Below are positions 22,484 through 39,053 of a stretch of DNA of 40,605 nt, piece after piece. A model generated the notes under the pieces. It saw only the letters and a list, made by a program, of their open reading frames with translations, searched no databases and was not told where the DNA came from. Origin of the DNA: a virus (taxonomy: Duplodnaviria > Heunggongvirae > Uroviricota > Caudoviricetes). Every line of letters starts with the position of its first letter. Position 1 is the first letter of the stretch. The stretch lies in IMG/VR virus record IMGVR_UViG_2734482545_000011. One strand, given 5' to 3'. The position numbers and the translations under genes were made by a program.

Positions 22484-23014
22484 ACAGCGAATCAGATCAA
22501 ATAAAACGCACATTTGTTAACATTTACACAAAGTCTGCGTGGGATATTCTGAAAGAATATCCATAATGTGGAGAGAATCTATTGAAGTGCATGGTGCCGG
22601 GTGCCTCCCGGTGAACAAAATGTTCGTGATACCTGTCGGCGACAGAAAAGGTTAATGGTATCACCCCACCGCACAGGGGGATTCACCATGCAGGAGTTTT
22701 CTTAGCAAACTCACTGCGCGCCCGGCAACTCCCAACCACATAAAATGCGGAGTTTGTGGCATTTATGCATATAACTCGCAGGAATTATCTTAAAAAACTG
22801 ATGTCGATCCGGATTAAAAAGAAGCAGGTCATCATCAGATGACTGGAAAAAAGGAAAACAAAAAATACTCATCATACAGTTTTGATTGCAGGGATGAGCC
22901 TGCTATGCACAATATGCAGAATATAAGCAAGATAAAAATATGCAGGCATATTATTTCGGATCTTGTTATTAACACAACCTTTTTAATAATCATTTGGCAT
23001 ACAATAAACCAGCC

Positions 23015-24011: not shown

Positions 24012-24298
24012 AAATGACCTTTCTTTCTCCAGATTTCTTGTGTGCGAAAAACCCCTTCAGCATGCATCAGGCGCAATTCTTCTTTGGTGTAATCGCTGGT
24101 TTTTACCCGCCCGTCGATTAGATCGTGGCATGAGCTACAGGCTATCGCCGCCTGCATATCATGTGGTTTTGTCGCTGTTCCGCACGTCCCCGCCAGCCTG
24201 TAATGCGCCAGCACAGAGGTTTCGGGATTGTGATTGCAGTAGCCAGGGATTCTGATCTGGCACATCTGGCCTTTAGCCGCTTTACGTAAATTCACCAT
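24008..24298 (-). CDS. YbcO-like Cys-rich protein (DUF1364-type)
   Basis: 96-aa ORF MVNLRKAAKGQMCQIRIPGYCNHNPETSVLAHYRLAGTCGTATKPHDMQAAIACSSCHDLIDG...; size and Cys pattern match the lambdoid nin-region YbcO family as I recall it. Confidence 0.55.
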   Translation of the reverse strand: MVNLRKAAKGQMCQIRIPGYCNHNPETSVLAHYRLAGTCGTATKPHDMQAAIACSSCHDLIDGRVKTSDYTKEELRLMHAEGVFRTQEIWRKKGHL

Positions 24299-24897
24299 TA
24301 CGCAAACTCCAGTAGTTGTGCGGCCACATTTTCAACTTCCTCCTGAGAGGAGAATTTACGGAACAGAATCCAGTTCCACAGCACATTCAGTACAGATTTA
24401 TAAACCTGCTGAAACTCGACTTCGTCCATATTCGCAAAAGCGATGGATTTTGCCCGACGCCCACGGCTACCGTCCGGATAAATATGCTCGGTGTAAAATC
24501 CGGCCTGAATGGTTACCCACTCGCGGAAAGCCTCAAACGACTTTAGCAACGCCGTATCCCGGGTTCTACGAGTCGCAACGGTGTTAAGGTATTGCTCTGC
24601 GGCATCACTCAGGGCTGGCGTGTGTTCCCGACCAACTGATTCGCACAGGTAATCAACGAAACCAGACAGCAGTTCTCGTTCGCGAGGCGTGATCGCCCCA
24701 CCGACCGGAGTCCAGTAATCGAATCCCAGTTGCAGGAGTTTGAAAAAACGCTTGTGGAATGCGTAGTTACGCACACGCTTAAAGTCTGCGTGTATCCACT
24801 CACCTATTTTGATTTGATGCAGAAAATCGCAACTCTCCGGCGTCGCCGGGAGAAGTAAACCAGAAGAGGTTTGTTTGACCAGTTGTATATGCGCCAT
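24298..24897 (-). CDS. hypothetical nin-region protein
   Basis: 199-aa ORF, translationally coupled to the YbcO-like gene (start/stop overlap). Confidence 0.5.
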   Translation of the reverse strand: MAHIQLVKQTSSGLLLPATPESCDFLHQIKIGEWIHADFKRVRNYAFHKRFFKLLQLGFDYWTPVGGAITPRERELLSGFVDYLCESVGREHTPALSDAAEQYLNTVATRRTRDTALLKSFEAFREWVTIQAGFYTEHIYPDGSRGRRAKSIAFANMDEVEFQQVYKSVLNVLWNWILFRKFSSQEEVENVAAQLLEFA

Positions 24898-24955
24898 TTC
24901 TCAATCTCTCGATGGCGCAGCGCAGCAGATGCCAGTTGTTCAGGCTGACGAATAA

Positions 24956-24983
24956 AGTATAAATAAACTGGCTATGGTGTAAA
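24956..24983 (-). promoter_or_regulatory. candidate sigma70 promoter for the nin/Q block
   Basis: Minus strand TTTACA - 16 bp - TATACT, about 60 nt upstream of the 199-aa gene start, at the edge of the AT-rich island. Confidence 0.4.
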
Positions 24984-25178
24984 GCCCCACATAGCATGAA
25001 CAAACACTACATATCAAATAGCTGGTACAAGGATAGAAATACGACACTTATTATTAAAAACGATTAGATAAATTACATTTTAATGTTATGCAAAAGTTCT
25101 TTTTTATCATAACATTTCAATAAAAGCATTACAGATGCAATCATCCCGTCATCATCAATTATTTAAGGTGGTTAAACA

Positions 25179-25277
25179 TGGAAAATAACAAGTTCGCACA
25201 TCTCGCTCCTTTTTTATCCGTAATCCTTTTCGCTTGTTGTTTTATATGGGCATTATTTTTATAAAGTAGCCACATGA
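25179..25277 (+). CDS. small hydrophobic peptide ORF (32 aa)
   Basis: AAGGTGG Shine-Dalgarno 6 nt before ATG; MENNKFAHLAPFLSVILFACCFIWALFYKVAT, one predicted TM helix; in an AT-rich intergenic stretch. Below the track cutoff; coordinates approximate. Confidence 0.3.
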
Positions 25278-25672
25278 TAAGTTGCTGGAATCATATTTCC
25301 CACTCAAGTCATTAACATTTGATAAGATATATCTAAAAGGACGCCTTTACATTATTTATGCGTATATAATTTATTTATATACACAGTAAAGGTATCCTGG
25401 GAAAATATTTATCGTTAAAAAATACATCATAAATAATTAAGCTGAAATTTCAGAACACAACTAATACACACAATAAGGTTCAGTAACAGTAATCTATGTG
25501 GACTACATCGAGATTTTTTGATTAAACTTTAATAACTTATTCCTAACACACAGAATGCATAAACTAAAAGTAAAACAAATAGTTATACGAAAAACAACCA
25601 TATTTATTCTATCTTCTCCTCTAATCAACATATCAATTATGTGTTTCATAACAGCTTGACATAACCCTCCAA

Positions 25673-25695
25673 AAGATGCATTTTTAATGCATGTT
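25673..25695 (+). promoter_or_regulatory. NsrR-type 11-1-11 inverted repeat overlapping the predicted promoter of the YeaR-like gene
   Basis: AAGATGCATTT-T-TAATGCATGTT (ATGCAT ... ATGCAT), downstream of a perfect TTGACA at 25656-25661 and about 16 nt before the GGAGGAGGTGG RBS. Confidence 0.4.
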
Positions 25696-25710
25696 TTGGA
25701 GGAGGTGGTT

Positions 25711-26049
25711 ATGACACACAAGAGAATTCCTAAAGATTGGGTAATCAAACGCTCAACTCCGTTCTTCACAAAAGAGAACGTACCTTCAGCGTTATTAACA
25801 CATCATAATACAGCAGCAGGTGTTTTTGGGCAGTTGTGCGTAATGGAAGGCACTGTAACATATTATGGTTTTACTGATGAGAATGCTACTGAACCGGAGA
25901 TAAAAGTAGTCATTAATGCTGGCGCTTTTGCAACAAGCCCACCACAATACTGGCACCGTGTTGAACTAAGCGATGATGCTCAGTTTAATATTAACTTTTG
26001 GGTCGCTCCAGACTTTTCGGGCGAAAAAGTCTATAGCACCAAAAAATAG
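25711..26049 (+). CDS. YeaR-like DUF1971 protein
   Basis: 112 aa from the internal ATG with a very strong GGAGGAGGTGG RBS; pattern RSTPFF...H...GV.G.L.VMEG.V.YYGF.DE...EPE...AG.FA..PPQ.WH.VE...DA.FNI.F.VAP resembles E. coli YeaR as I recall it. Confidence 0.5.
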   Translation: MTHKRIPKDWVIKRSTPFFTKENVPSALLTHHNTAAGVFGQLCVMEGTVTYYGFTDENATEPEIKVVINAGAFATSPPQYWHRVELSDDAQFNINFWVAPDFSGEKVYSTKK

Positions 26050-26669: not shown

Positions 26670-27671
26670 TTAGTAATCTGCGTGTTTCGCACTTTTCAGA
26701 AATGCTTTCATATTTTCATTAGGTCGCTCAATTTCGAAGTTACTTCCATATAACTCTTGTAATTTTGGCCATAACTTACTTAATAACCCTCTCCTGCGAT
26801 AAAATGGATGTATCCAAACGGTAGATAGGTACGGAGAATTTGCATTTGAATTGTTTATTGTGACCAGCCCAACTAAACATTGTCGATAACCACTATTATC
26901 CATTGATTGTATTTCTTCGACGAATGGATACGCGATTACATCAGTCCAACCATGATCGGTTGTATCCCATTGCATTCCGTCATGACATTCCTTCGACTGA
27001 TAGCGGCGTAAAGCTACACACGCGAGCTTTTGCCAATCTGGAGAATTAATTGTGATCTCTTCATCGTATGACGCGCCTATTGGAGCGGGTATTGGTCTGA
27101 TTAATCCAGCATGGCATTCATCATAGAACTTCATGTTTCCCTCAGAAACGTTGTGTACGTTGGGTTGCTCCATGTGTGCGCCATTCAAAAATAGCTCTGA
27201 TAGTAGTGTATCTACACTGTAATCTTTATTGATTATTGTCGGCTTAGAGTTTTTCTTATTAAGGCCGCGAGTAACGATTTTTTGATCAATGTTAACAACA
27301 TGGAATAATCCGTCGGGGAGGCTAGCGAACCACGATGGGGCATCGGACCAGAATAGCATGCCTTTTGTACTTCTTAAGAGTTTAATTAAGTTAATACAAG
27401 CTTCTTCACTAGTCTTGCCGTTGATGCGAAGTATGTTAGGACTAAAGTAATATTCATCCATATCAGGGAATGCAGCTTCGCAAAACTCCTGTACATAATT
27501 TAGCACCTGGATTCTACAGAGATCATCATAGCTGGTAATAACTAAGGGGGTATCTTCATTACTATTATGATTATCAATAATGCAATCTATAGCGAGACTT
27601 ACTGCTTTGCGTATCACTTCAGTTGAATCTAACGACTCTAAAAATTTTGTCTTTCGTGTGCGAATATCCAT
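26670..27671 (-). CDS. hypothetical protein, gene B of the AT-rich two-gene operon
   Basis: 333-aa ORF starting 15 nt after the gene A stop (AGGT RBS); AT-rich codon usage; no family recognised by eye. C-terminal ...VWIHPFYRRRGLLSKLW... only weakly recalls a GNAT motif A. Confidence 0.7.
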   Translation of the reverse strand: MDIRTRKTKFLESLDSTEVIRKAVSLAIDCIIDNHNSNEDTPLVITSYDDLCRIQVLNYVQEFCEAAFPDMDEYYFSPNILRINGKTSEEACINLIKLLRSTKGMLFWSDAPSWFASLPDGLFHVVNIDQKIVTRGLNKKNSKPTIINKDYSVDTLLSELFLNGAHMEQPNVHNVSEGNMKFYDECHAGLIRPIPAPIGASYDEEITINSPDWQKLACVALRRYQSKECHDGMQWDTTDHGWTDVIAYPFVEEIQSMDNSGYRQCLVGLVTINNSNANSPYLSTVWIHPFYRRRGLLSKLWPKLQELYGSNFEIERPNENMKAFLKSAKHADY

Positions 27672-27686
27672 GTATGACCTGCGCTA

Positions 27687-28709
27687 TTAAAATTCATGAA
27701 TGAACGGTTTGTCATCTGGTTGCAAAATGGTGGTTTTATTCGTTGCTACATTTAAACTGTTGTAGAGCATAATTGCCAGGTTCGATGCATTTTCAATCAG
27801 CGTTTCAAGATCCTGGTCTGTAATCACTACGAGGTTCCCTTCTTTATCCTTTCCACCACGATGCACTAAGTGATTTCGATTGAGGGTTGCCAATTCAATA
27901 GCTTCTATCGGACAGTCTTTTTGTACTTTTATATCGAATGTAGCTTCATAGCGGTCGATTACCTTTTTAGTGCTATGCCAGCTTGCACTGATCAAGTGTT
28001 CCTTGATTGACCTGATTAGCTCTCCCCTAATTTTCTCGATGGGTTCACCCTTGAAAGGCAACGCAGCAATATCTTTGCTTACTTTAAATTCAGTCTTACC
28101 TTTTTCTATACAATTGGCTATGTAGACATCATCTTTCTCTATAGAATTAATGAATAGCTCAACATAAAGCGTTTCCAAAGCTGTAATAACATTCGTGTAG
28201 AGCAAACTAAGCAAGTGGTTTTTTTGCTGTTGTTCAGTTTTATCTTTTGCAAGTTTTTTTATTTTATCGATATTATCAATGAATTTTAAATACGGATTAC
28301 CGGAAGACGTTACAGCGTCGTAGATATCATCATCGTACCAATCATCTATATTATTTGAGTTTCCAGACCAGTCAAAACATTGTGTTTGTAATTCATCTAC
28401 TAATTCCTCAATATACTCAGATTTAACATATTGACCGAAGATGGATTGTAGTTCTTCGCTCGCATCATACGGCCCGCCATATATGTAAGCATAGCCACCT
28501 TCTCTACTTTCATACGGACAAGCATTTGCCGGATCTTCAAAGTTTTCAAAGAACCAGTTTTTCATTACTTCGAGTTGATCTTTTTTGCTTATGTATTTTA
28601 AAGATTTTAGTGGAACTTTCTTTCCATTAACCTCGAAAACAATTTTCACGATGTAACGCTCCCTTGTATCAATTGCGCAACTATTATACCACAGCGAAAT
28701 ACAGGGCAT
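27687..28709 (-). CDS. hypothetical protein, gene A of the AT-rich two-gene operon (C-terminal HEPN-like R-N-x-x-x-H motif)
   Basis: Track ORF 27687-28778; start placed at the ATG with a perfect TAAGGAGG 6 nt upstream (MPCISLWYNSCAIDTRERYIVKIVFEVNGKK...), 340 aa; C-terminal segment EAIELATLNRNHLVHRGG contains R-N-H-L-V-H (Rx4H). Confidence 0.7.
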   Translation of the reverse strand: MPCISLWYNSCAIDTRERYIVKIVFEVNGKKVPLKSLKYISKKDQLEVMKNWFFENFEDPANACPYESREGGYAYIYGGPYDASEELQSIFGQYVKSEYIEELVDELQTQCFDWSGNSNNIDDWYDDDIYDAVTSSGNPYLKFIDNIDKIKKLAKDKTEQQQKNHLLSLLYTNVITALETLYVELFINSIEKDDVYIANCIEKGKTEFKVSKDIAALPFKGEPIEKIRGELIRSIKEHLISASWHSTKKVIDRYEATFDIKVQKDCPIEAIELATLNRNHLVHRGGKDKEGNLVVITDQDLETLIENASNLAIMLYNSLNVATNKTTILQPDDKPFIHEF

Positions 28710-28747
28710 AACCTGCCTCCTTAAACTAACATACCATGAGCCAGCAA

Positions 28748-28773
28748 TGTCCGCTATTGGCACAAAGCGGACA
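28748..28773 (-). promoter_or_regulatory. 8-bp inverted repeat upstream of gene A (possible operator)
   Basis: TGTCCGCT - 10 bp - AGCGGACA, about 40 bp upstream of the gene A start codon; no U-run follows, so not a terminator. Confidence 0.3.
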
Positions 28774-28847
28774 ACCACGCTAGCTCTCCCCTGTGCCAGA
28801 AAAATGTCAATTTACATATGAACTAATGCTCTTTGATCTAGTAACGT

Positions 28848-38852: not shown

Positions 38853-39053
38853 ATGGAGGTGTTCATGTATAAAATTACCGCCACTATTGAAAAGGAAGGT
38901 GGCACTCCTACTAACTGGACAAGATATTCAAAATCTAAACTAACGAAATCAGAATGCGAAAAAATGCTCTCAGGTAAAAAAGAAGCAGGCGTTTCCAGAG
39001 AGCAGAAAGTAAAACTGATAAATTTTAATTGCGAGAAACTTCAGTCCTCGTGA
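38853..39053 (+). CDS. ydaC: YdaC-like protein
   Basis: MEVFMYKITATIEKEGGTPTNWTRYSKSKLTKSECEKMLSGKKEAGVSREQKVKLINFNCEKLQSS; alternative start at the second ATG (38865) after GGAGGT. Confidence 0.55.
   Translation: MEVFMYKITATIEKEGGTPTNWTRYSKSKLTKSECEKMLSGKKEAGVSREQKVKLINFNCEKLQSS

Follow-up and report, generated by a model that had tools for sequence, protein, structure and literature searches.

A 28-codon open reading frame (ORF) on the plus strand at 25178-25264, TAA stop included, is very probably a genuine protein-coding gene that annotation has overlooked. The frame (MENNKFAHLAPFLSVILFACCFIWALFL) lies in a 40,605-nt stretch of Caudoviricetes DNA, referred to here as the window, which is a Rac-type lambdoid prophage of Escherichia coli. 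Comparison of its relatives shows that purifying selection acts on the encoded protein and that the ends of the ORF coincide with the ends of homology. About 22% of complete E. coli genomes, including that of the uropathogen model CFT073, match this gene, which is missed in every record examined; annotation routinely passes over membrane proteins this small. The family is a new small-protein family of a familiar kind and brings with it no new principle. Its member in the window is a candidate for a factor made in lysogens, with relevance to membrane physiology, superinfection exclusion or toxin biology.

Sequence and translation signals of the small ORF

The ORF opens with an ATG at 25178-25180 and closes with a TAA at 25262-25264. 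Six nucleotides (TTAAAC) separate the ATG from a Shine-Dalgarno sequence (SD), AAGGTGG, at 25165-25171 on the plus strand, a functional spacing that is exactly as the original prediction described it. The same prediction gave a frame of 32 codons at 25179-25277. Its start is one base off, and the frame read from that base contains stops. The first 27 residues that it listed are correct, but its tail, YKVAT, is not: one T had been dropped from the run in GCATTATTTTTATAA near the end of the ORF, which made the reading too long. The true 3' end reads GCA TTA TTT TTA TAA, so that the peptide finishes ...WALFL after 28 codons.

The predicted peptide has a polar N-terminus, MENNKFAH, followed by about 20 hydrophobic residues that reach the C-terminus, with a tryptophan near the end. 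One transmembrane helix is predicted, and the mean Kyte-Doolittle hydropathy of residues 9-28 is 2.3-2.5 across variants. Taken by itself, the combination of SD, ATG and 28-codon ORF is not beyond chance. The pattern AAGGTG-N5-9-ATG occurs four times in the window, against 2.2 expected, and several other ORFs of 30-40 codons are found in the same AT-rich stretch. It is conservation that raises this ORF above chance, and conservation across relatives also supports the wider claim made at the outset, of an unannotated gene for a small single-transmembrane peptide with a good SD.

Genomic setting

The ORF occupies an 813-bp gap (24898-25710; 26-37% G+C) flanked by a DUF1367 gene (24298-24897, minus strand) and a DUF1971/YeaR-like gene (25711-26049, plus strand), and the AT-rich setting between the nin block and the YeaR-like gene was thus correctly described. 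Around the ORF the G+C content is 26-32%, compared with 47-57% in the nin genes. Identical DNA is found in LD39-1 between recE/racC/kilR/sieB and trkG. On the minus strand, the gene order is a YdaS/YdaT-like pair, DUF1376, a DnaC/IstB-like gene, DUF1627, DUF977, variable cargo, the intergenic region with the ORF, DUF1367, YbcO and a Q-like antiterminator (DUF1133). The ORF runs against early-rightward phage transcription and is divergent from DUF1367.

This places the ORF where the conserved nin/Q backbone gives way to a variable cargo slot, which holds hok/sok, IteAS or, in the window, DUF1971. Unlike the adjacent cargo, the ORF is conserved along with the backbone. It marks the fixed edge of a slot in which toxin-antitoxin and anti-phage cargo is swapped, and is therefore a useful landmark for new cargo. 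Several of its features are moron-like, namely the AT-rich setting, the opposite strand and the flanking terminator-like hairpins; the promoter candidate is weak.

Distribution among E. coli, viral contigs and metagenomes

Megablast searches with the intergenic region as query matched 850 of 5426 complete E. coli genomes, 463 of them over at least 80% of the query. In approximately 366 genomes the match covers query positions 1-366 only (window 24900-25265) at 76-78% identity, and here homology ends at the stop codon of the ORF. A more sensitive search with the SD and ORF as query found 1175 of the 5426 genomes (22%) at 1240 places, 1172 of which span at least 80% of the query. The median is one copy per genome and the highest number is two. 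CFT073 has a match, with the ORF inside 1346807-1346909 of NZ_CP051263.1, and K-12 has none, and no annotation lies over the ORF in any E. coli row listed. Shigella and E. ruysiae are carriers beyond E. coli.

At least 120 stretches in viral contigs were collected by a pattern scan and 76 metagenome loci by a peptide-pattern scan. All 28 codons are kept in 127/127 complete viral-contig copies (among the matches listed) and in 75/75 metagenome copies, figures that are partly conditioned on the search, as these copies were sought with ORF-derived patterns; the flank-based E. coli searches are free of this conditioning. The diversity amounts to 24 ORF DNA haplotypes and about 20 peptide variants, with M1, N3, N4, H8, P11, L13, S14, I16, F18, C21, W24, F27 and L28 invariant.

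The original prediction had named absence of the ORF from otherwise identical islands as an observation that would count against it. This objection largely fails, since almost every E. coli genome with this version of the intergenic region has the ORF, the exception being one copy with an internal deletion in E. coli ZH177. This is the sole decayed copy seen (L218 1490-1960); a deletion of approximately 66 nt has removed the ATG through codon 21 and fused the SD straight to codon 22, and the adjoining hok is also truncated. In Salmonella, Citrobacter, Pantoea, Erwinia and Serratia, as in one E. coli/Shigella variant, the DNA upstream of the DUF1367 homologue is unrelated and lacks the ORF, which indicates that the cassette is not a universal companion of DUF1367.

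A conserved cassette in four lineages

The conserved unit measures approximately 220 bp (25047-25265). It begins with an invariant block (about 47 nt), continues with a leader that varies and contains indels, and closes with the SD and ORF. Four lineages have this unit, with different DNA 3' of the stop codon. In lineage A, represented by the window, AT-rich DNA and DUF1971 follow. Lineage B (L002, L003 and CFT073) has the hok terminator hairpin and then hok/sok on the other strand, and lineage C (L004 and L219) has a bidirectional terminator, AAACCCGCTACAGCGGGTTT, and then the anti-phage pair named IteS/IteA in RefSeq. Lineage D (L161-L163) lies in the chromosome of an enterobacterium other than E. 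coli, with SraC/RyeA-SdsR about 550 nt away and yebY-copD alongside. There, yebY-copD is 87% identical to E. coli, and both flanks are unrelated to the prophage. Example coordinates for lineage D are L162 1361-1590 and 2133-2277, with a surrounding segment of roughly 1.4 kb.

The cassette therefore has at least three kinds of left neighbour: a DUF1367-type nin region (DUF1367/YbcO/Q, in the window), a Rem/DUF968/RusA-type nin region (Rem-like/DUF968/RusA/Q, in L027, L165 and CFT073) and unrelated chromosomal DNA. Its right neighbours are of at least four kinds: the DUF1971 island, hok/sok, IteS/IteA and the RyeA/SdsR side. Homology between lineages ends 1-4 nt past the stop codon, and that of lineage D begins exactly at the invariant block (25047). 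Lineages A and B share 79% identity over the ORF, without gaps, and about 64% over the leader, with gaps; their downstream DNA is unrelated. The SD is retained or slightly weakened in all lineages, as AAGGTGA in B and C, AAGGTAG in D and a weakened AAAGTGA in sub-lineage B2, which includes CFT073. In the chromosomal context of lineage D, where the nin/Q operon is absent, SD, start and stop are all kept.

We also considered the ORF as a part of hok/sok and rejected this, as K-12 Qin has hokD without the ORF and the window has the ORF without hok. In K-12 Qin the left side is different, and homology to CFT073 starts only at the hok terminator. Where hok is present its terminator separates it from the ORF, and where it is absent, as in the window, the ORF stays with the nin-side backbone.

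Upstream block, leader and RNA signals

At the left edge of the cassette, the nearly invariant block CTTATTATTAAAAnnGnTTAnAnAAATTnnATTTTAATGTTATGnAA (25047-25093, plus strand) contains a promoter candidate in which TTATTA (25051-25056) and TACATT (25074-25079) are spaced by 17 nt, in the same columns in 13/13 representatives. The -10 element is TAAATT in other lineages, with T-12, A-11 and T-7 kept, and the -35 element lies at the left edge of homology. From this candidate, a plus-strand transcript would be predicted to start near 25085-25087. In a position-weight scan of the 13 aligned representatives the candidate scored weakly, near background, and weak candidates were present on both strands. 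A consensus promoter and terminator scan found no plus-strand promoter, and its matches were no more numerous than in shuffles. The block may nevertheless function as a promoter, and is treated here as a candidate. A search of the window for a repeated operator resembling the block returned nothing beyond the arm of its own hairpin.

That hairpin, ATGTTATG (25083-25090) with CATAACAT (25108-25115) on the plus strand, stands at the start of the putative leader. All eight pairs are kept in 13/13 representatives, and the three changes, all one-sided, leave G-U wobbles that exist only on the plus strand. This would make the plus strand the RNA strand, on weak evidence, as there is no double compensatory change. 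A separate 5-bp hairpin, C[G/A]CTT-ATTATTA-AAG[C/T]G, is found at 25045-25062, at the left edge of the invariant block. Lineages B/C and D differ in it by a compensatory change from G-C to A-U, and in lineage A it is disrupted.

The variable leader (25094-25164, plus strand) lies between the invariant block and the SD and contains indels. Folding of the leader and start against shuffles gave z scores of -1.16 (window), 0.06 (L002) and -0.28 (L162), although the true transcript ends may differ. The consensus structure reaches only -10.5 kcal/mol. With a stability no better than that of shuffles, the leader does not show a fold of the kind that occludes the ribosome-binding site of toxin mRNAs.

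Downstream of the ORF, a strong hairpin followed by UUUU lies on the minus strand at 25334-25398 (-25.7 kcal/mol, z -5.6, 0/200 shuffles as stable). It looks like a terminator that would halt cargo-side minus-strand transcription before the ORF. Hairpins at the equivalent position are present in lineage B (the hok mRNA terminator), lineage C (the bidirectional AAACCCGCTACAGCGGGTTT) and lineage D.

It had been suggested that the region could also encode an antisense sRNA, and our results give this no support. We found no minus-strand promoter and terminator conserved in position across the four lineages, and Rfam, at gathering as well as permissive thresholds, gave no match to the ORF or its surroundings. 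A 38-codon antisense ORF (25159-25275, minus strand) was likewise tried and rejected, as it has stops in lineages B and C.

Evidence for coding and non-coding alternatives

Pairwise Nei-Gojobori dN/dS values are 0.25 (A-B), 0.22 (A-C), 0.05 (A-D), 0.11 (B-D) and 0.08 (C-D). Lineages A and D differ at 11 synonymous and 5 non-synonymous positions, and synonymous sites approach saturation between them. On a minimum-spanning tree of the 24 haplotypes, the 57 changes are distributed 9/19/29 by codon position. Counted as codon changes, 24 of 54 are synonymous and 30 are not, while the neutral expectation is 29% synonymous. No stop has been gained or lost (P = 0.028 for 57 random changes), and indels are absent from the ORF, with several in the leader. 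Across the 64 distinct segments, the sense frame alone among the six is never interrupted; the antisense frame with the same wobble positions is broken by stops in lineages B and C. Replacements in the hydrophobic stretch are almost all conservative (A/V, V/I, L/F, C/F, I/V/A). A test for conservation of one helical face gave no significant result (p = 0.25), and we have dropped the argument for a specific partner-binding surface.

These data bear directly on the proposal that there is no gene here, but a chance frame in conserved regulatory DNA or RNA, such as a promoter, operator or terminator for the nin/Q operon or the cargo slot. The pattern of change is hard to fit to this proposal: dN/dS stays at 0.05-0.25 with A-D synonymous sites near saturation, changes pile up at third positions while the only other frame sharing those positions is broken elsewhere, and neither stop changes nor indels have entered an ORF whose leader has indels. 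A regulatory element of the nin/Q operon would also not be expected to keep start, SD and stop at a chromosomal site without that operon. What the proposal does accommodate is the invariance, even at synonymous sites, of the last 17 nt of the ORF and of the CCTTTTTTATC segment, together with an ORF nucleotide identity only modestly above that of the whole intergenic region, translation signals within chance for AT-rich DNA, and the lack of annotation in any record listed. On balance we consider it improbable. Less probable still, to the point of being remote, is a regulatory role as a leader peptide or upstream ORF, with translation governing transcription or termination into the cargo and the peptide itself without function. 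The hairpin 20-25 nt past the stop in lineages B and C would suit such an arrangement, as would the presence of DUF1971 as the next same-strand gene in the window, but the cargo genes beside the ORF in B and C are on the opposite strand, and DUF1971 comes with a TTGACA and an operator-like palindrome of its own, 450 nt downstream. Purifying selection on amino acids over the whole length is also unexpected if the ORF is read only for ribosome occupancy.

Family and literature searches

Searches of Pfam, NCBIfam, PHROGs, PADLOC and PDB sequences with the peptide gave no useful match and no toxin family. A collection of 15 billion proteins contains none of the 10 peptide variants that were looked up as exact strings, probably because the ORF is below gene-calling length limits. 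The peptide string was not found in the searchable literature or in the supplements of the O157 Sakai small-gene study, and literature on DUF1367 prophages and IteAS yielded nothing relevant.

Possible function of the peptide

If the gene is accepted, the reading we favour, tentatively and at a little under an even chance, is that the peptide is a non-toxic modulator or an exclusion-type protein. The combined statement, that the ORF is a gene for a single-pass membrane peptide and that this peptide has such a role, we regard as evenly balanced. The cassette is self-contained in appearance, with a weak promoter candidate, leader, SD and ORF (about 130 nt upstream plus the ORF). The ORF would be transcribed from its own promoter in the lysogen, with the terminator shielding it from cargo-side antisense transcription. 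The peptide would insert in the inner membrane N-in/C-out and act within the membrane through specific helix contacts, in which the invariant H8, P11, S14, C21 and W24 may take part. As a small modulator it could thereby act on a membrane protein of the host or the phage, comparable to MgtR, PmrR or KdpF, or it could serve as a small exclusion-type moron protein.

Rather unlikely, though a serious competitor, is a new type I toxin that would damage the inner membrane and whose mRNA would be held in check by an sRNA from the invariant block, by one from the strand opposite the ORF, or by the read-through early phage transcript. The short polar head followed by hydrophobic residues to the C-terminus resembles ShoB, the compact cassette seems to move between contexts, and in two lineages it adjoins a toxin locus that works through RNA (hok/sok in B, RyeA/SdsR in D). 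Moreover, the most conserved part of the cassette is not the ORF but the block of about 47 nt, which precedes the ATG by 85-130 nt. The antitoxin RNAs of tisB/istR, shoB/ohsC and zor/orz pair with the leader in such a far-upstream position, and it is because invariant blocks are the antitoxin pairing sites in the tisB, shoB and zor loci that the type I reading stays alive. Against it, no minus-strand promoter and terminator are conserved in position across the four lineages, the covarying hairpin at the left edge (G-C to A-U, B versus D) is broken in lineage A, and the leader folds no better than shuffled sequence, unlike typical translation-blocking toxin mRNAs. There is also no match to any toxin family or Rfam antitoxin, and most genomes have a single copy (median 1, highest 2). 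With neither an antisense sRNA nor a locked mRNA fold found, membership of the type I toxins is unsupported. An improbable further reading is a new kind of lysogeny-specific membrane switch, in which the peptide would be made in quiescence and shut off on induction by antisense read-through of the anti-terminated early transcript; the peptide would then be either a type I-like toxin with a phage transcript as its 'antitoxin' or a membrane component working with the adjacent defence cargo.

Comparison with known systems

Comparison with known small membrane proteins shows likenesses on both sides of this question. ShoB/OhsC, TisB/IstR-1, ZorO/OrzO and DinQ/AgrB are also free-standing intergenic cassettes of a few hundred bp, each with a 26-29-residue peptide that is nearly all one helix, a leader of about 90 nt or more and a conserved segment far 5' of the SD. 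ShoB even ends in a hydrophobic ...LLFL tail, where the present peptide has ...WALFL. The ORF differs from the ShoB, TisB, ZorO and DinQ loci in having no detectable homology, no conserved signals for a divergent or overlapping sRNA, no stable inhibitory fold, and no LexA-type or other recognisable stress operator. Hok/Sok shares with it the small membrane peptide, the prophage slot and the short terminator-flanked cassette; Hok, however, is about 50 residues long and comes with a mok leader ORF and Sok antisense RNA (RF01794 match in L002), on the opposite strand.

The modulator or exclusion reading draws on two other groups. MgtR (30 aa), PmrR (29 aa), KdpF (29 aa) and MgtS (31 aa) resemble the peptide in size, a few polar residues, single helix and a tryptophan near the periplasmic end. 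They also share conserved polar or special residues inside the helix, which suggests helix-helix recognition. The genes for all four lie in or beside the operon of the partner, under two-component control, whereas the ORF travels as its own cassette with changing neighbours and has no sequence similarity to them. The superinfection blockers HK97 gp15 and the SieB family are likewise borne by temperate phages, isolated between backbone modules in AT-rich DNA, with flanking terminators and an orientation that permits lysogen expression. A sieB gene is present in the same type of prophage (LD39-1). These proteins are larger than the peptide and show no homology to it, PHROGs being without a match.

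Other features of the window

The cargo hotspot separates DUF977 from the small ORF (window 26670-28778, minus strand), and its counterpart is seen in L002, L004, L218 and L219. Across prophages the hotspot holds hok/sok with an AAA ATPase and DUF262, a Sll1717-type P-loop ATPase, or IteA/IteS. Its contents in the window are a GNAT-like protein of 333 aa and a protein of 363 aa that weakly matches a HEPN/RES N-terminal domain; the two could be an uncharacterised defence pair.

Within the gap, a perfect TTGACA (25656-25661) lies directly 5' of the DUF1971 start at 25711. The same region (within 25656-25702) contains a palindrome with 17-nt arms, CCTCCAAAAGATGCATT/AATGCATGTTTTGGAGG, that overlaps the DUF1971 SD. 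Its core, AAGATGCATTT-T-TAATGCATGTT (25673-25695), resembles the NsrR operator of the K-12 yeaR-yoaG promoter, and the prophage copy of DUF1971 may therefore respond to nitric oxide. Upstream of DUF1367, a promoter-like TTTACA-16-TATACT (10/12 matches) is found at 24956-24983 on the minus strand. This stretch is 91-94% conserved between lineages and also occurs in prophages with a different nin gene set; the site could serve the nin/Q operon as an internal promoter.

Two Rfam matches were found elsewhere in the window. STnc100 (86.6 bits, 22535-22721, minus strand) lies downstream of the Q-like antiterminator gene and is probably the late-promoter leader RNA region of the prophage. The antitoxin RNA RalA is matched over its full length with 225 bits at 38871-39049 on the minus strand, which indicates that the ralR/RalA type I system of Rac is present in the window.
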